Source: Alphaproteobacteria bacterium
Lineage (GTDB): Bacteria; Pseudomonadota; Alphaproteobacteria; SP197
DNA: 64,000 nt
Reading direction: 5' to 3'
NCBI GenBank assembly: GCA_965242595.1
Contig: OZ251464.1
Coordinates: forward strand, 1,278,235 to 1,342,234
Position 1 is the first letter of the stretch, and each line of letters opens with the position of its first letter. Both the position numbers and the translations under genes were made by a program. Shown in pieces: positions 1,774 through 56,300 of the stretch. Below the pieces are notes generated by a model that had not been told where the DNA came from, searched no databases, and worked only from the letters and a program-made list of their open reading frames with translations.

Positions 1774-2232
1774 TCAGGCCGCTTCGCCGACGCTCAGCGT
1801 GACGCGTTTGCCAAAGCGGCGCAGGGCGTCGTCCAGCGTGGCGGTCCTGGTGGCGTGGTCCGGATTCAACATGCGCCGCGCTTCGCTTTCGGCGATGCCC
1901 AGTTCGCATGCCAGGCGGCGCTGCGACATGCCGGTCTGGCGCCACGCCTGGTAGAACGCCGCCTTCAAGGCGATCTGCACTGGCGGCGCCACCAGCGCCC
2001 GCCGCTGCGCTGCTCCCGGGCTGCGGCAGGGCGAGGGCCGAGGCAAGGCCCGGCCCTCGCGCATGGTGGTGGCGATCAACTCCCGCAGCAGGTCCCGCGC
2101 CTCGGCCAGAGCTTCGGCGCGGTTGGCGCCGTCGCTGGCGCCCCAGCCGAAATCGGGAAAGGTCACAACATGGCGGCCGTCCTCGTCGCGCTCGATTTCG
2201 GCCGGATAGTTGAATGTAGCAGGCATTCTCAT
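1774..2232 (-). CDS. hicB: HicB family antitoxin (type II TA) with C-terminal HTH domain
   Basis: MRMPATFNYPAEIERDEDGRHVVTFPDFGWGASDGANRAEALAEARDLL... is an RNase H-like HicB N-domain. The C-terminus carries an XRE-type HTH (GMSQRRLACELGIAESEARRML). The gene lies immediately downstream of hicA on the same strand. Confidence 0.7.
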   Translation of the reverse strand: MRMPATFNYPAEIERDEDGRHVVTFPDFGWGASDGANRAEALAEARDLLRELIATTMREGRALPRPSPCRSPGAAQRRALVAPPVQIALKAAFYQAWRQTGMSQRRLACELGIAESEARRMLNPDHATRTATLDDALRRFGKRVTLSVGEAA

Positions 2233-2284
2233 CTTCCCCACATATCCAGAATCGATATCTTCAATTGGTATCTTCAGCCGCTCT

Positions 2285-2515
2285 TCAAAAATCCTCCCGG
2301 TCGATTCCAAGATCGGAAAGCATCTTGGCGAGCAATCCCTTGCCGATCTCTTTCCTGCGATCCTTGACGGTGGTCTTATGGTCACCGACATGAAGTGTCC
2401 CATGGGAGCCCGACCCGCTGGATGCCAGAAATCTCACGTCCATATCACGGAGCCTGGCCCATTTGCGCACCCTCTTTATGAAGACACGGCCATTCACTGT
2501 CCTGTCTCTGCGCAC
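2285..2515 (-). CDS. hicA: HicA family mRNA interferase toxin (type II TA)
   Basis: 76-aa ORF with the GSGSHGTLHVGDHKTTVKDRRKEIGKGLLAKMLSDLGI pattern (GSH...TVP.H...EI.G.L..IL...GL of the YcfA/HicA fold). Confidence 0.7.
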   Translation of the reverse strand: MRRDRTVNGRVFIKRVRKWARLRDMDVRFLASSGSGSHGTLHVGDHKTTVKDRRKEIGKGLLAKMLSDLGIDREDF

Positions 2516-2605
2516 AAAAATGCGCGCATGTCAACCCTCCGCCGATGGCCCGGGCGACGATCCAGCGATGGGGAGGGAAGGGCAGCTCCGAAATCTCCGC
2601 CATGC

Positions 2606-3052
2606 TCAGGCGGCGGCGGGCATCTCGCGCGGGGGCGGCAGCATCACCAGGGCTTCGCCTTCGATCACCACCGCCTTATCGACGGTGCACACGGTCTCCA
2701 GGGTCAGGCGGCGCCGGGCCGGGTCGATCCGCTTGACCGTGACCGTGGCCGTCACCGTATCGCCCACCCGGACCGGCGCGTTGAAGCGCAGCGACTGGCC
2801 CATATAGATCGCGCCCGGCCCCGGCAGGCGGGTGCCGATCACCGTGGAGATATAGCTGGCGGAGAGCAGGCCATGGGCGATGCGCCCCTTGAACATCGTG
2901 GCGGCGGCATAGGCATCGTCGATATGAACCGGATTGTCGTCGCCCGACACGCCGACAAAGCGCTGAATGTCGTCGTCGGTGACGGTGCGGCTGTAGCTGT
3001 CCTGCTGGCCGACCCGGAGGTCGGCGAAACGGTCGGCGGCGGCTGACTCCAT
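2606..3052 (-). CDS. MaoC-like (R)-specific enoyl-CoA hydratase / dehydratase (hot-dog fold)
   Basis: MESAAADRFADLRVGQQDSYSRTVTDDDIQRFVGVSGDDNPVHIDDAYAAATMFKGRIAHGLLS... shows the classic MaoC dehydratase motif (DxNPxHxD...G.IAHG). Confidence 0.7.
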   Translation of the reverse strand: MESAAADRFADLRVGQQDSYSRTVTDDDIQRFVGVSGDDNPVHIDDAYAAATMFKGRIAHGLLSASYISTVIGTRLPGPGAIYMGQSLRFNAPVRVGDTVTATVTVKRIDPARRRLTLETVCTVDKAVVIEGEALVMLPPPREMPAAA

Positions 3053-11770: not shown

Positions 11771-13489
11771 ATGACCCGATGGGACAAATCCAGACTGCCC
11801 AGCCGCCATGTCTCGCTGGGGGCGAAGAGCGCGCCGCACCGCGCCTTCTATTACGCCATGGGCATGAGCGACCAGGAGGTGGCCCAGCCCTTCGTCGGCG
11901 TCGCCACCACCTGGAACGAGGCGGCGCCCTGCAACATCACGCTGATGCGCCAGGCCCAGGCCGTGAAAAAGGGGGTGAAGGCCGGCGGCGGCACGCCGCG
12001 CGAGTTCACCACCATCACCGTCACCGACGGCATCGCCATGGGCCATGCCGGCATGAAATCGTCGCTGGTCAGCCGCGAGGTGATCGCCGATTCGGTGGAG
12101 CTCACCATGCGCGGCCATTGCTACGACGCCCTGGTGGGGCTGGCCGGCTGCGACAAATCGCTGCCCGGCATGATGATGGCGATGCTGCGCCTCAACGTGC
12201 CTTCCGTGTTCCTCTATGGCGGCTCGATCATGCCCGGGCGCTATCGCAACCGGGATGTCACCATCGTCGATGTGTTCGAAGGCGTCGGCGCCCATGCGGC
12301 CGGGGCCATGTCCGACGCCGAACTCGACCTTCTGGAGCATGTCGCCTGCCCTTCCGGCGGTTCCTGCGGCGGCCAGTTCACGGCCAACACCATGGCCACG
12401 GTGTCGGAGGCCATCGGGCTGGCGCTTCCCAATTCGGCCATGACGCCGGCGCCGTTCGAAAGCCGCGACGCCTTTGCCGAGGCTTCGGGCCAGGCGGCGA
12501 TGCGGCTTGTTGCCGACAATCTCCGCCCGCGCGATATCGTGACCCGCAAGGCGCTGGAAAATGCCGCCACCGTGGTCGCCGCCACCGGCGGTTCCACCAA
12601 TGCCGGCCTGCATCTGCCGGCCATCGCCCATGAGGCGGGCATCGCCTTCACGCTGGACGATGTCTGCGCCATCTTCCGCCGCACCCCCTATATCGCCGAT
12701 CTCAAGCCCGGCGGGCGCTATGTCGCCAAGGATCTTTACGGAGTGGGCGGCGTGCCGGTGCTGATCCGGACGCTGCTGGACGGTGGCTGGCTTCATGGCG
12801 ACACGCTCACCGTCACCGGGCGCACCCTGGAGGAGAACCACGCCGACATCGTTTTCCCGGACGACCAGGACGTGATCCGCCCGGCCAGCGCGCCGCTTTC
12901 GCCCAGCGGCGGGGTCGTCGGGCTGAAGGGCAATCTGGCGCCGGAAGGGGCGATCGTGAAGGTGGCCGGCATGAAGACCCAGAGCTTCCGCGGCCCTGCC
13001 CGCTGCTTCGACAGCGAAGAGGCCTGCCTGGAGGCGGTGCTGGCCCAGCGCTTTGCCGAAGGCGATGTGCTGGCGATCCGCTATGAAGGCCCCAGGGGCG
13101 GCCCCGGCATGAGGGAGATGCTGGCGACCACCGGCGCCCTTTACGGCCAGGGCATGGGCGAAAAGGTGGCGCTGATCACCGATGGGCGCTTTTCCGGCGC
13201 CACCCGCGGCTTCTGCATCGGCCATGTCGGCCCCGAAGCCGCTGTCGGCGGCCCCATCGGCCTGCTGCAAGACGGCGACACCATCGCCATCGACGCCGAA
13301 CGCGGGCGCCTGGACGTGGAGCTGAGCGCGGACGAGCTGGAGCGTCGCCGCCAAGCCTGGCGCCCGCGCCAGACCGACTATACCTCCGGCACCATCTGGA
13401 AATACGCCCAGACCGTAGGCGCCGCCCATCTGGGCGCCGTCACCCACCCCGGCGGCCACGGCGAAAGCCACGTCTTCGCGGATCTTTAG
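11771..13489 (+). CDS. ilvD: Dihydroxy-acid dehydratase (IlvD/EDD family)
   Basis: 572 aa. [16 protein letters not shown] Fe-S ligands, ...[15 protein letters not shown]..., and N-terminal [14 protein letters not shown] are typical of IlvD. Confidence 0.8.
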
Positions 13490-13506
13490 AGCGGATGGGG
13501 GGCAAG

Positions 13507-14181
13507 ATGATCGTTGTCATTCAATGTGCTAAAAGCAAAAGGGATCATGCTGGCCATCTCGTGAATAACGCCGGCCGAAAAGTGTTGTTTGTCGCTCGTC
13601 CCGAAGAAGCCTCCGCTTGTGAAGGTTACATCTTTGCACGACCGGACGACGACGATGGCACGGGTGTCTCATGGCGGAACCAACTGTTGGAGTACAATAA
13701 AAATTCCAATAGCAATCCGCTAGGTTTGTTGCCGGCGGTGGAACTCTACAAACATCCGATCTACGAACACCTGGCGCGACATTATGGACGCGAGAATCTC
13801 TACATACTTTCGGCAGGTTGGGGTCTGATTGCAGCAGATTTTCTGACACCAGCCTACGACATCACATTCAGCAGTGACGCTGAGTCCTGTCATCGACGGC
13901 GTCAAAGCGATATTTATTGCGACTTCCACATGCTGCCGGACGATACGACAGAGCCTGTCATATTCCTCGGTGGCAAGAGTTACGTTAAACTTTTTTGCTC
14001 ATTAACCAGGAACGTGAAAGGTAAGCGATATGTTTTTCATAAAGGCAAGCAATATGTTTTTCATGTATCCCGGGGTGAACCCCATGCTCCGAAGTGTTTT
14101 TTCAAGAGATTCGAGACAACAGCCCGAAGTTGGCACTATGAATGCGCTCACGCCCTTATCGAAGGCAGGATCGGTATCTGA
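13507..14181 (+). CDS. Hypothetical protein (224 aa) in a low-GC islet. No family recognised; Cys/His-rich C-terminus.
   Basis: GC content drops sharply over 13495-14200 (AT-rich codons, e.g. aaaagcaaaagggatcatgct). G-rich SD before ATG 13507. Protein MIVVIQCAKSKRDHAGHLVNNAGRKVLFVARPEE...YILSAGWGLIAADFLTPAYDITFSSDAESCHRRRQSDIYCDFHMLPDD.... Confidence 0.55.
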   Translation: MIVVIQCAKSKRDHAGHLVNNAGRKVLFVARPEEASACEGYIFARPDDDDGTGVSWRNQLLEYNKNSNSNPLGLLPAVELYKHPIYEHLARHYGRENLYILSAGWGLIAADFLTPAYDITFSSDAESCHRRRQSDIYCDFHMLPDDTTEPVIFLGGKSYVKLFCSLTRNVKGKRYVFHKGKQYVFHVSRGEPHAPKCFFKRFETTARSWHYECAHALIEGRIGI

Positions 14182-29467: not shown

Positions 29468-30105
29468 GCGGTGGCGAGGCCCCTTTCCTGCGGCTGCTGA
29501 TGGAGCTGCGCAGCCAGGGCATCCACGACATGGCCGTGCTGCGGGCGCTGGAGGCGACGCCGCGCGATCTGTTCGTGCCGGGCGAGCTGGCCAGCCAGGC
29601 CTGGGAGAACACGGCGCTGCCGATCGGCTGCGGCCAGACCGTCAGCCAGCCCATCGTGGTGGCGCTGATGACCCAGAAGCTGGCCCTGGAAAAGCATATG
29701 CGGGTGCTGGAGGTGGGCACCGGCTCGGGCTATCAGGCGGCGATTCTGGCCCGCCTGGCGGCGCGGGTCTATACGGTGGAACGCCATGGCGAGCTGCTGC
29801 GCCAGGCGCAGCGCCGTTTCGACGCCCTGGCGCTCCACAATGTCACCACCATGCGCGGCGACGGCGCCAGGGGCTGGCCGCGCCAGGCGCCGTTCGACAG
29901 AATCGTGGTGACGGCCGCCGCCCGGCGCATGCCGGAGGCGCTGATCCGGCAGCTGACGCCGGGCGGTACCATGGTCGTGCCGGTGGGCGAAGACATGTGG
30001 AGCCAGAAGCTCAACCATGTCGAGCGGCTGGACGATGGCTATCGATGCGAGGCCTTTCTCGATGTGCGTTTCGTGCCGCTGGTGGAAGGCGCCGACAGGC
30101 CTTGA
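29464..30105 (+). CDS. pcm: Protein-L-isoaspartate O-methyltransferase
   Basis: VLEVGTGSGYQAAILARLA SAM motif. ATGA overlap with surE. surE-pcm-nlpD order as in many proteobacteria. Confidence 0.85.
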   Translation: MSGGEAPFLRLLMELRSQGIHDMAVLRALEATPRDLFVPGELASQAWENTALPIGCGQTVSQPIVVALMTQKLALEKHMRVLEVGTGSGYQAAILARLAARVYTVERHGELLRQAQRRFDALALHNVTTMRGDGARGWPRQAPFDRIVVTAAARRMPEALIRQLTPGGTMVVPVGEDMWSQKLNHVERLDDGYRCEAFLDVRFVPLVEGADRP

Positions 30106-30121
30106 ACGGGCGCGGCGGGCC

Positions 30122-31117
30122 GTGGCGCGCTTTGCCCGCCGCCGGCTGCCCCCCCCGGCCACCGTCACGGCCGGCATCCTGGCCGCGGCGCTGCTGGCGG
30201 CGTGCAGCCAGCCGCCGGCCCCGGTCACCTTCGGCGCCTCGTCGGGCGGGGCCAGCCCGCCGCTGCCGCCCGAACTGCCGCCCCAATTGCCGATAACGGA
30301 CCATGCCGGCGCCGTTCCGCCTCTGCCCGGGTTCAAACCGCAACCGCCCGCCGCCGCGCCGGCCCAGGGCGGCGACGAGGCCCCCCTGGCCGACGATCTC
30401 ATCGCCCATATCGAGGCGATCCTGCTGGCCGAGGAGGCCCAGGGCGAACCGCAGCCGGTGGCGACCCAGACCCTGGAGACGGAGGCCGGAACGGTGGTGG
30501 TTCTCACCGTGGCGTCCGGCGATACCCTCTACGGGCTGGCGCGGCGGCTGGGCGTCACCGCCCGCCAGCTGATCGAGGCCAACGGCCTGGCGGCGCCCTA
30601 CGACCTGCTGATCGGGCAGAAGCTGAAGGTGCCGGCCGCCGGCGCTGCCGCCGCGCCGCCGGCCCCAGATGCCAGCCCGCCGCCGGTGACCGGGCCGGTC
30701 GAGGCGCCGCCGCTCCCCGCCTCCCGGGCCGATGGCGAACTACGCTTCGCCTGGCCGGTGGCGGGCCGCGTCATCTCCTCCTTCGGGCCGAAAAGCGGCG
30801 GGCGCCACAACGACGGCATCAACATCGCCGCCCCGGCCGGCACGCCGGTGCGGGCGGCGGAGGACGGCGTGGTCGCCTATGCCGGCGACGAGCTGCGAGG
30901 CTATGGCAATCTGGTGCTGCTGCGCCACGCCGATGGCTGGGTCAGCGCCTATGCCCACAACGCCGAAAACCTGGTCTCGCGCGGCCAGACCGTGTTGCGG
31001 GGCGACGTCATCGCCAGCGTCGGGGCCAGCGGCGGCGTCACCCACCCCCAATCCCATTTCGAACTGCGCCGCGGCACCGAAGCCGTGGACCCGCTGCCCC
31101 ATCTGGGCAGCCCTTAG
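30122..31117 (+). CDS. nlpD: LysM + M23 peptidase lipoprotein (NlpD-like)
   Basis: Lipobox LLAAC. LysM segment VASGDTLYGLARRLGVTARQLIEANGL. M23 motifs HNDGINIAAPAGTPVRAAEDGVV...GNLVLLRHADGWVSAYAH...HFELRRG. Confidence 0.75.
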   Translation: MARFARRRLPPPATVTAGILAAALLAACSQPPAPVTFGASSGGASPPLPPELPPQLPITDHAGAVPPLPGFKPQPPAAAPAQGGDEAPLADDLIAHIEAILLAEEAQGEPQPVATQTLETEAGTVVVLTVASGDTLYGLARRLGVTARQLIEANGLAAPYDLLIGQKLKVPAAGAAAAPPAPDASPPPVTGPVEAPPLPASRADGELRFAWPVAGRVISSFGPKSGGRHNDGINIAAPAGTPVRAAEDGVVAYAGDELRGYGNLVLLRHADGWVSAYAHNAENLVSRGQTVLRGDVIASVGASGGVTHPQSHFELRRGTEAVDPLPHLGSP

Positions 31118-31245
31118 GCGGGAAGCGGCCGGCGCCGGAATAGCAGTTGTGAGCAGGCAGGAAAATCTATTGTGCCGACGCGATCTCAAACTACCGCTTT
31201 GTAGCATTTCTCTTCAGCATTGGGCGGACAACGCTCTGTGAAACA

Positions 31246-32055
31246 TCATACCTCCACACACTCAAAGCGCAGTTGATTTTCCGTGACCTGCTTGTCATGG
31301 GGCACCGTGCATACCCGTAGGCAAGGAACGAAAGCCTGCCCGCAAACAGCCCATTTCTTATTCCAAACACCGTCTGGGAACAGACGTCGGCTATGACTCG
31401 TTACATGCCTTCCCCAACACGTGCTATCGGTGAACGGTCTCCCGAGATCCTCTACGTCTGTTGCTTTGAGAAATCCCAAATAAACAAGAACCACTGGATA
31501 ACCCAGTTCGGTGAGTTTCCAGGACCAGGAGAAACGGTTGGATATCTGATAGCAGAGGTCGCGCGATAGTGACCAATCATGTCCTGTCGCTTTCGTTAAG
31601 GCCATACTGGCCTCACAAATACATTTTTCAATTCGTTTGTGATTGCGTCGGGAGTCTTCACTCGCATCAGATTTTAATGGTTTACCATTGAGACTCAATT
31701 CTTTTGTGTGAGCTTTTGCTTCGACGAGAAGTAATCCCCTTGCGCCATCAATTTTGCAAGTACTGGCGATATCGAAGTTCGGAGTATTAGGGTTATTAGA
31801 ACTCACTGCAATCCACCAATGGCATAAAGTATCTTGATCCTTCTCCGGCAACAGGGGTGATCGATCCAAACGTGCTTCCTCGGTCCGACAAAATCCTTGT
31901 GGTAGCCAGCTGTCATTCGCCGACACTTCGATCCATGGTGCAGCCAGCTTCGTCAAGCGCGCGGCGACTTCCTCAGGCTTCCCATGAGTAAGCCAGTGGC
32001 AACGTGGCTTACTTCCTCTACGCCCTTTCGCGGGCAGCTTATTGAGCAGGCTCAT
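31246..32055 (-). CDS. PD-(D/E)xK nuclease-like protein (candidate restriction/defence endonuclease) in a low-GC islet
   Basis: About 48-50% GC versus about 70% in the flanks. Motif ...NTPNFDIASTCKIDGARGLLLVEAKAH... fits D-x(n)-E-x-K of the restriction endonuclease-like fold. The 270-aa ORF starts MSLLNKLPAKGRR. An alternative start lies 19 codons upstream. A 13-codon upstream mini-ORF with a good SD overlaps the start. Confidence 0.6.
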   Translation of the reverse strand: MSLLNKLPAKGRRGSKPRCHWLTHGKPEEVAARLTKLAAPWIEVSANDSWLPQGFCRTEEARLDRSPLLPEKDQDTLCHWWIAVSSNNPNTPNFDIASTCKIDGARGLLLVEAKAHTKELSLNGKPLKSDASEDSRRNHKRIEKCICEASMALTKATGHDWSLSRDLCYQISNRFSWSWKLTELGYPVVLVYLGFLKATDVEDLGRPFTDSTCWGRHVTSHSRRLFPDGVWNKKWAVCGQAFVPCLRVCTVPHDKQVTENQLRFECVEV

Positions 32056-32150
32056 GGTATGTCCATTTGGTCGCGCGCATGGTTGCCTCTCTACCTGTAT
32101 GTCGCTTGACATGCAAGCTGAACTGGCTTCCTCGTTCCAGGCCGCCCCGT

Positions 32151-33035
32151 TCAATCCAGCCTGCGGCCCAGGCGGCCTGCCAGGTCCTGGATGAACTGCC
32201 AGGCGACGCGGCCGGAGCGGGCGCCGCGGCCGGCTTGCCAGGCGATCGCCTGGGCGTGGAGGGCGGGGGTTGCGACCGCGAGGCCGAAATGGGTGGCATA
32301 GCCCTCGACGATGGCGAGATAGGTCGGCTGGTCGCAGCCATGGATGCCCAGCCACAGGCCGAAGCGGTCGGAAAGCGAGACCTTTTCCTCCACCGCTTCC
32401 CCCGGCGCGATGGCCGTGGAGCGTTCGTTCTCCATCATGTCGCGCGGCATCAGATGGCGCCGGTTGGAGGTGGCGTAGAACAGCACGTTGTCCGGGCGGC
32501 CCTCGATGCCGCCTTCCAGCACCGCCTTGAGCGATTTGAAGGCGGCGTCGCCGGCCTCGAAGGAGAGGTCGTCGCACAGCAGGATGGCGCGGCGGTCGGT
32601 TCCGCGCAGGCGGGCCAGGAGGCGGGGCAGGGTGGCGAGGTCGTCGCGGTGGATCTCGATCAGCGCCAGGGGGGCATCGGTGTCGGCCTGGGCGGCGATA
32701 TGGGCGTTGACGTGGGCGTGCACCGCCTTCACCAGGCTGGATTTGCCCATGCCGCGCGCGCCCCACAGCAGGGCGTTGTTGGCCGGCAGGGCGCGGGCGA
32801 AACGCCCGGTGTTGGCGAGCAGCGCCCGTTTGGCCGCCTCGATCCCCCGCAGCAGGGCCAGTGGCACATGCCTCACCCGGGCCACGGCGCGCAGGGTGCC
32901 GGACTGGGGCTGCCAGACGAAGGCGTCGCCCGCATCCAGGGCATCGTCGCGGGCCGGTGGCGGCGCCATGCGTTCCAGCGCCGCGGCGATGCGCGCCAGA
33001 AGCTCGCCGCCCGGAAGCTCATCATGAGTGCTCAT
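32151..33035 (-). CDS. AAA-type ATPase of the DUF815 family
   Basis: Walker A LLWGARGMGKSSLVKAV, Walker B-like ILLCDDLSFE, about 295 aa. Host-like GC. Divergent from yajC. Confidence 0.65.
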   Translation of the reverse strand: MSTHDELPGGELLARIAAALERMAPPPARDDALDAGDAFVWQPQSGTLRAVARVRHVPLALLRGIEAAKRALLANTGRFARALPANNALLWGARGMGKSSLVKAVHAHVNAHIAAQADTDAPLALIEIHRDDLATLPRLLARLRGTDRRAILLCDDLSFEAGDAAFKSLKAVLEGGIEGRPDNVLFYATSNRRHLMPRDMMENERSTAIAPGEAVEEKVSLSDRFGLWLGIHGCDQPTYLAIVEGYATHFGLAVATPALHAQAIAWQAGRGARSGRVAWQFIQDLAGRLGRRLD

Positions 33036-33138
33036 GGCGGCGGACCCTAGTCCGGATCGCGGCGGCGGGGTAGCGCGGCGCTTGCATCCGCCGGGCGGGT
33101 GGCTATAGTCCGCCACCTCCAAGACATCGGAGACCACC

Positions 33139-33507
33139 ATGCTGATTGCCGAGGCTTATGCGCAGGAGGTCGGCGGCGCCGGCGGCGGGTTCGACCCCAT
33201 CTTCCTGATCATGATGGTCGCCATGTTCGGCGTCTTCTGGTTCCTGGTGATTCGCCCCCAGTCGAAGCGCACCAAGGAGCATCGGGCCATGCTGAGCGCC
33301 ATCAGGCGCGGCGACCATGTGGTCACCAATGGCGGCATCATGGGCCGCGTCGCCCGCCTGGAAGGCGACGGCGTGCTGATCCTGGAGATCGCCCCCAATG
33401 TGCGGGTGAAGTGTCAGCAGTCCATGATCGCCAGCATGGCGGCCCGGCCCGAGCCGCGAGCGGCCGAGAAGGACGACGAGGACGGCGGCGACCGCAAGGA
33501 CGGCTGA
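33139..33507 (+). CDS. yajC: Preprotein translocase subunit YajC
   Basis: FLIMMVAMFGVFWFLVIRPQSKRTKEHRAMLSAIRRGDHVVTNGGIMGRV; SD GGAGA. Confidence 0.85.
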   Translation: MLIAEAYAQEVGGAGGGFDPIFLIMMVAMFGVFWFLVIRPQSKRTKEHRAMLSAIRRGDHVVTNGGIMGRVARLEGDGVLILEIAPNVRVKCQQSMIASMAARPEPRAAEKDDEDGGDRKDG

Positions 33508-55790: not shown

Positions 55791-56101
55791 GCCACCGGCG
55801 CGATGAAAACGGCGATCCGCCCGCCGCAGGGAAGCCCCAGCTCCCAGGCGCGCTCGTCGCTGACGTCGAAGCCCAGCCGCCGCACGGCCCCGTCGCTCAG
55901 CGCCGCCCGAGCCTCGGCGATCACGGCGCCCTCGACACAGCCGCCGGAGACCGAGCCGCGAAAGGCGCCATCGCCGCGCACCGCCAGCACCGCCCCGGGC
56001 GGGCGCGGGCTGGAACCCCAGCTGGCGGTCACGACCGCCAGCGCCACATCGTGGCCGTCCTCGCGCCAAGCCTGGGCGACCTCCAGCACATCCTCGCTCA
56101 T
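55787..56101 (-). CDS. XdhC/CoxI family accessory protein, N-terminal domain (split gene)
   Basis: MSEDVLEVAQAWREDGHDVALAVVTASWGSSPRPPGAVLAVRGDGAFRGSVSGGCVEGAVI matches the XdhC_CoxI N-domain. Confidence 0.6.
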   Translation of the reverse strand: MSEDVLEVAQAWREDGHDVALAVVTASWGSSPRPPGAVLAVRGDGAFRGSVSGGCVEGAVIAEARAALSDGAVRRLGFDVSDERAWELGLPCGGRIAVFIAPVA

Positions 56102-56300
56102 GGCGCCCCTCCCGACCGGCGCGCCACTATGCCACGCCCGGCGCCCGCGCAATCCTATTTTACCGAAAAATATAGCAATATCAAGTGGTTACGGTAAATT
56201 GTCCCGGTTTCATTACCATTTTCTTGCGGCAGAATCGATCTAACTGTATTCTGCCCCGATTCGTCCTCTATGGGCGAAAGCCGCAAAGGGGGCAACGATC

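Follow-up and report, generated by a model that had tools for sequence, protein, structure and literature searches.

In EcoprrI, a type I restriction-modification (R-M) locus, the gene prrC is flanked by hsdS and hsdR. Genes nested in R-M operons have been tied to defense by their embedding (Payne et al. 2024, 10.1101/2024.01.29.577857; TgvAB, PMC11411939), and they have repeatedly proved to be defense systems, as with PrrC, TgvAB, and the HEC/PDC sets. PrrC is almost exclusively embedded in type I systems (10.1101/2024.01.29.577857), and in Ronin the effector RonA is caged by HsdMS (10.1101/2023.04.06.535777). Here we compare with these systems a gene that lies alone in a 64,000-nucleotide stretch of DNA from an Alphaproteobacteria bacterium (GTDB lineage SP197; assembly GCA_965242595.1, contig OZ251464.1, positions 1,278,235 to 1,342,234 of the forward strand), which we refer to in its entirety as the window. 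The gene is an intact open reading frame (ORF) of 269 amino acids on the minus strand (31246..32055, with the ATG at 32055 and a TGA ending at 31246), and it encodes a member of an uncatalogued PD-(D/E)xK nuclease-like family. In descriptions of operons, we call the family gene X. The window copy is foreign to its surroundings, and we consider it probable that it is a recently acquired, intact, and likely autonomous orphan of a restriction-linked family of defense nucleases.

The native home of the family is in type I R-M operons, a fact that the earlier note on this stretch, made from the DNA sequence without database searches, had missed. Our sample of family loci consisted of 80 metagenomic loci, 2 from viral contigs, and 7 from an exact protein look-up, whose neighboring ORFs were clustered. 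Three same-strand neighbors of X recur: a gene of 470 amino acids that ends at the X start, a gene of 1010 amino acids that begins at the X stop, and a gene of 660 amino acids ∼3.2 kb upstream, which Pfam and PADLOC identify as HsdS, HsdR, and HsdM, respectively. In most cases, hsdM and hsdS are separated by a DUF262/GmrSD-like gene. X was found inside this hsdM–(DUF262)–hsdS–X–hsdR operon in 52 of 79 informative loci, the others being clear orphans (10) or probable orphans (17); a further 10 loci were too short to judge. Both native junctions are ATGA overlaps, one joining the hsdS stop to the X ATG and the other joining the X stop to the hsdR ATG. At the former, GAGGAG codons in the acidic tail of HsdS serve as the Shine-Dalgarno sequence for X; beyond the latter, HsdR begins with MTTDTSEKGLE.

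X behaves as an optional cargo of these operons, because sister operons within their clade of type I systems that lack X hold other cargo, or nothing, at the same place. In such operons of Meiothermus, Synechocystis, and Enterobacter plasmids (hsdM 64–76% identical), the slot between hsdS and hsdR contains DarT/macro, AAA plus DUF4276, or zeta toxin genes, or is empty, and some X-containing operons additionally carry DarT–DarG or AAA_15/21. Operons with several cargo genes besides X were seen at loci L125 (8556–10275), L107 (5393–6040), L126 (2800–4670), L167 (4782–8004), and L169 (6681–7915), with DarT–DarG(macro), AAA_15/AAA_21 and a 222-amino acid gene, or DUF6978 and DUF1828 between hsdS/X and hsdR, and with a PRTase-CE gene and a NADAR–HsdS fusion upstream of X. 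In this one type I clade, the hsdS–hsdR slot is thus the usual home of the family, which shares it with other optional defense cargo. X does not stand in for a defective HsdR nuclease, because the HsdR proteins encoded beside it retain their own D...ELK and QY nuclease motifs. We also considered the acidic tail of HsdS, ∼35 amino acids with a net charge of −8 to −17 (e.g. L085 5535–5639 and L170 14120–14227, and also L171 and L172), as an X-specific tether or DNA mimic, and rejected the idea, as the tail characterizes the type I clade as a whole and is found also in the Meiothermus, Synechocystis, and Enterobacter plasmid operons without X.

The protein itself carries the motif FDIAS...LLLVEAKAH, which the earlier note had read as a nuclease signature and which supplies putative catalytic residues Asp-95, Glu-112, and Lys-114. 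Clusters at 90% identity that match the window protein (E ≤ 1e-3) number at least 1756, the best being 56–58% identical and all being named "hypothetical"; by profile search, the family comprises 1137 clusters at 50% identity. In an alignment of 44 members that are 29–54% identical to the window protein, Asp-95 is invariant, Glu-112, Lys-114, Tyr-169, Gln-170, Asn-173, and Arg-174 are each conserved in at least 90%, and His-116 is conserved in at least 85%. An N-terminal G-S-x-x-R-C motif is also conserved across the family, and Cys-19, His-20, His-24, and Cys-100 may form a cluster. The window copy retains 44 of the 47 columns conserved at 85% or above, and its three changes are conservative.

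The AlphaFold2 model of the window protein (predicted local distance difference test score 93.9, predicted template modeling score 0.92) places Asp-95 at the start of strand 96–102 and Glu-112-x-Lys-114 at the end of strand 105–114. In this predicted structure, a restriction-endonuclease-like α/β core bears the D...(D/E)xK residues on consecutive strands in the classical PD-(D/E)xK geometry, as in the solved nucleases Upx (9wuf), BstEII (9ibq), NgoMIV (1fiu), Cfr10I (1cfr), NucS (2vld), SfsA (4dap), and McrC (6hz4). Sequence models of the superfamily do not reach it. Neither the window protein nor the family profile matches anything in Pfam-A (and hence no curated clan model), NCBIfam, PADLOC v2, PHROGs, or the PDB sequences, the PADLOC v2.0.0 search having included the PDC and HEC models at E ≤ 1, and Foldseek searches of the model against the PDB and BFVD returned nothing significant. 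Divergent members and fusions provided no link to a named family either: 10 divergent or long members had no Pfam match except DUF6508 in one N-terminal extension. The nuclease-like nature that the earlier note read from the motif is supported by the model and by conservation. The family is remote from any solved or curated protein, and its protein would be a metal-dependent DNA endonuclease. It is possible that a nuclease of this type, akin to NucS, SfsA, or a resolvase, serves not in defense but in repair or recombination, being carried with restriction operons to process the DNA breaks that they make; we regard this as very improbable.

Viewed against the known systems, X resembles PrrC (and RloC) in its setting, as an optional extra gene in the hsdS–hsdR slot that would encode a nuclease effector and may provide a second line of defense. 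PrrC, however, is an ABC-ATPase joined to an anticodon RNase, not a PD-(D/E)xK protein, and has no relation to X in sequence or fold. The type IV systems TgvAB and the GmrSD/BrxU-like (DUF262) genes are likewise type I-embedded, have nuclease effectors, and are able to act without HsdR (PMC11411939), and DUF262/GmrSD-like genes even share operons with X; but GmrSD has a DUF262 plus HNH/DUF1524 fold, and X has no detectable modified-base reader. Like X, the uncharacterized genes of the HEC/PDC sets of PADLOC v2 lie inside type I R-M systems in the same orientation and also occur outside them, although none of their models matches X, and the X family is mostly environmental or metagenomic and phylogenetically scattered. 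In Ronin, as here, an effector is genetically welded to hsdS/hsdM. RonA, however, is a 61-amino acid membrane peptide, and Ronin lacks hsdR, whereas X is a nuclease-like protein of 265 amino acids in operons that have hsdR with its nuclease motifs intact. In its action the uncatalogued, restriction-linked family would be like other extra nucleases nested in type I operons, but it belongs to no named family.

Embedding is not obligatory. Orphans and probable orphans account for 27 of the 79 informative loci, as judged within the fetched loci (hsdMS could lie elsewhere in these genomes), and they belong to several clades; this share of about a third contrasts with the almost exclusive embedding of PrrC. 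The window copy is one of the orphans, with no hsd homologue in the 64-kb window, and in a simple neighbor-joining tree it groups with orphans L084, L001, and L083/L002. Ratios of nonsynonymous to synonymous substitution rates are 0.13–0.34 for orphan pairs and 0.10–0.31 for embedded pairs, which indicates that orphans are under purifying selection comparable to that on embedded copies. Some orphans (L087/L088, L102, and L153) keep a truncated 5′ end of hsdR and therefore descend from embedded copies. Another orphan, L155 (767–3738), represents a second insertion into a housekeeping operon: metX (homoserine O-acetyltransferase-like) and metW lie on either side of it, and stop and start codons overlap. 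No methyltransferase is present among the neighbors in the window, in agreement with the earlier note, so the adjacent cognate enzyme of a type II pair is absent; in native loci the sole methyltransferase is the type I HsdM. Because the family has its home in type I operons between hsdS and hsdR, the window orphan comes from a restriction-linked gene rather than from a type II pair. Embedded and orphan clades exist side by side, and this provides a natural experiment on the dependence of such cargo upon the host system.

The foreign origin of the window copy is plain from its composition. The content of guanine plus cytosine (GC), in 300-nucleotide windows, drops from 0.70–0.77 to 0.45–0.51 between ∼31138 and ∼32135. 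The ORF has a GC content of 0.499, against a mean of 0.705 (standard deviation 0.042) for other 810-nucleotide windows (z = −4.9), and a GC content at third codon positions of 0.48, against 0.88 for the DUF815 gene and 0.89 for the nlpD-like gene that flank it. The edges of the segment are sharp, with 40-nucleotide GC values stepping from 0.68 to 0.47 at ∼31138 and from 0.62 to 0.78 at ∼32135; these edges delimit a foreign segment of ∼1.0 kb (approximately 31138..32135) that consists of the ORF with ∼80 nucleotides upstream and ∼110 downstream. In 1-kb bins, 31–32 kb has the lowest GC content of the window. In other hosts, the GC content of the family gene follows that of the host (r = 0.77); no copy departs further from its host than the one in the window (−0.20), which points to a recent arrival. 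We considered and rejected a phage or plasmid origin, as the family is nearly missing from collections of both: tblastn found no match in PLSDB or INPHARED and two in IMG/VR. Around the islet we found neither tRNA nor integrase, no Rfam element, and no direct or inverted repeats at its ends; it is thus a clean case of a ∼1-kb horizontal insertion of a single gene, still unameliorated, without mobility genes or repeats.

The insertion entered a conserved junction of convergent genes. The window has serS, surE, pcm, nlpD, DUF815, yajC, and secDF around the islet. The nlpD-like gene (30017–31117, plus strand; LysM and Peptidase_M23 domains) is convergent with the nuclease gene, and the DUF815 P-loop ATPase gene (32151–33140, minus strand; Pfam E = 1.5e-98) is co-directional with it, ending 95 nucleotides upstream. 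We mapped the window neighbors onto 80 alphaproteobacterial loci, mostly of Rhodospirillales and Hyphomicrobiales, that carry the closest available DUF815 proteins (58–68% identity). The order secD–yajC/DUF815/nlpD–pcm–surE is conserved among these, and in ∼30 of the 80 the DUF815 and nlpD stops are direct neighbors, 20–100 nucleotides apart. A homologue of the low-GC gene is present in none. The composition and this absence bear out the earlier note in its description of the islet, including the fall in GC content over one ORF (given there as 270 amino acids), the foreign single-gene insertion, the two flanking genes, and the orientation and spacing relative to the DUF815 gene.

The same comparison contradicts that note's suggestion that the nuclease and the ATPase could form a pair. 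As a foreign nuclease working with a host-GC P-loop ATPase, such a two-gene system would be in keeping with the co-directional arrangement of the genes, their separation by only 95 nucleotides, and the lack of a terminator-like site between them. Yet DUF815 is syntenic with yajC–secDF and nlpD–pcm–surE over the 80 genomes, none of which has the nuclease, and neither DUF815 nor nlpD occurs in any of ∼86 nuclease-family loci; the DUF815 protein, moreover, has no PADLOC match. Because of this synteny and the lack of co-occurrence in either direction, DUF815 is best regarded as a resident gene whose adjacency is accidental, and a functional partnership, effectively refuted, seems scarcely credible. 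The junction is not a dedicated defense hotspot either. It is a variable spot that in about ten other lineages holds 1–4 kb of unrelated and mostly host-GC cargo of an ordinary nature (histidine kinase, autotransporter, YkuD, outer membrane protein, symporter, and alcohol dehydrogenase). At the equivalent junction of Phyllobacterium sp. OV277 (L057, 6864–7259), there is a single low-GC ORF of 131 amino acids (GC content 0.39, versus 0.56 for the locus) with no Pfam match, and at that of locus L066 there is an Mrr_N fragment.

The two spacers of the islet retain little of a former operon. The upstream spacer, which separates the ORF start from the end of DUF815, has 95 nucleotides (32056..32150, minus strand), and the downstream spacer, which runs from the ORF stop to that of the convergent nlpD gene, has 128 (31118..31245, minus strand). 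The flanks are unlike those of any other family locus. We looked in them for remnants of hsdS or hsdR and found that they resemble native junctions in neither protein nor DNA sequence; after the ORF stop, which falls within an ATGA as at native X/hsdR junctions, there is no remnant of hsdR. Only the ATGA signatures, present at both ends of the window copy, remain. The start at 32055 is preferred to the in-frame ATG at 32112 because homologues begin at the equivalent methionine (M..LL.KL...GSKPRCHW). A mini-ORF of 13 codons (MRATKWTYHEPAQ, then stop; 32039..32080, minus strand) has GAGAGG 5 nucleotides before its ATG and, in another reading frame, overlaps the main ATG by 17 nucleotides. The earlier note had pointed to this mini-ORF and to its ribosome-binding sequence, and both exist; it is absent, however, from every homologous locus compared, where hsdS is the overlapping upstream ORF, and a role for it in translational coupling is speculative. 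Past the nuclease stop, an ORF of 11 codons (MMFHRALSAQC, then stop; 31214–31249, minus strand), whose ATG overlaps that stop as ATGA, mimics the native X/hsdR junction; it has no similarity to HsdR N termini and is probably due to chance.

We favor the reading in which the protein would be a self-contained, restriction-linked defense module that complements type I restriction where it is embedded and could also act alone, with invading DNA as its probable target, recognized in a type IV-like or otherwise non-self-specific manner. That orphan clades survive argues for autonomy, with non-self told apart by type IV-like specificity or in another way, and against obligate caging by HsdMS. The window nuclease may be type IV-like, as raised in the earlier note; the family has stand-alone orphans under selection but no known reader domain that could be detected. 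Several considerations weigh against our reading. An orphan nuclease that was always active should be toxic, and therefore specificity or control of some sort must exist; library scans revealed no recognizable modified-base reader (SRA, EVE, DUF262, etc.) or DNA-binding domain; in the window, no Shine-Dalgarno sequence lies directly before the nuclease ATG; and the ATGA overlaps that couple X to hsdS and hsdR in native loci could reflect, instead, a physical association of X with the type I complex. The last point recalls another scheme, in which X would be a latent toxic nuclease, caged by HsdM/HsdS or by the full type I complex and freed to cause abortive infection when that complex is disabled by an anti-restriction protein of a phage (Ocr, ArdA, or Stp-like), as in PrrC or Ronin. 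X does occupy the same slot as prrC in EcoprrI, and its overlaps with hsdS and hsdR suggest co-production. Caging of an effector by HsdMS has its precedent in Ronin, and the window copy, which under this scheme would depend on distant hsdMS or be inert, could have such genes elsewhere in its genome, as could the other orphans. We nevertheless consider this scheme unlikely because orphans make up about a third of loci in several clades and are under selection like that on embedded copies, because the 64-kb window has no hsd homologue, because other cargo can part X from hsdS or hsdR (L169, L125, and L126), and because operons without X also have the acidic HsdS tail that had been a candidate for the tether.

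The window copy could also be an inert hitchhiker, a fragment of a transferred type I operon that is unexpressed or functionless here and bound to decay. The wholly unameliorated composition, the absence of hsd partners from the window, and the ATGA at both ends, which recalls an operon context, are all compatible with this idea, as are the missing Shine-Dalgarno sequence and the lack of any promoter-like site in the 95-nucleotide spacer. However, the ORF is of full length, with no frameshift or stop, its strongly conserved columns are nearly all intact, and selection maintains orphans elsewhere. In addition, no terminator-like site separates the gene from DUF815, which makes read-through plausible, and expression of the window copy by such read-through, or by coupling to the mini-ORF, can be offered as a speculative route. 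On balance, decay of a functionless fragment seems to us quite improbable, and an intact orphan of the defense family remains the reading that we prefer.

For the family as a whole, we would venture a broader proposal, more tentatively than our reading of the window copy. X may be a widespread anti-phage gene absent from curated libraries, either as a stand-alone restriction-type (type IV-like) PD-(D/E)xK nuclease or as a DNA-cutting counterpart of PrrC and Ronin that is held in check by the type I complex and fires upon anti-restriction, with orphans active alone. Large and highly conserved, and outside Pfam, NCBIfam, PADLOC v2, and PHROGs, the family is in any case a well-defined and testable candidate for the defense catalogue.

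Elsewhere in the window, a second low-GC islet with a single gene lies at 56100–57300, where the GC content is 0.48–0.57, between flanks of 0.74–0.79, and where the 56.1–57.3-kb interval is nearly as low as the nuclease islet. Its ORF (56301–57092, plus strand) encodes a protein of 263 amino acids whose N-terminal segment is signal-like and which contains about five ankyrin-like repeats (G.TPLHLAA). Weaker dips occur at 13001–14000 (0.60) and 2001–3000 (0.64), against a GC content of ∼0.70.
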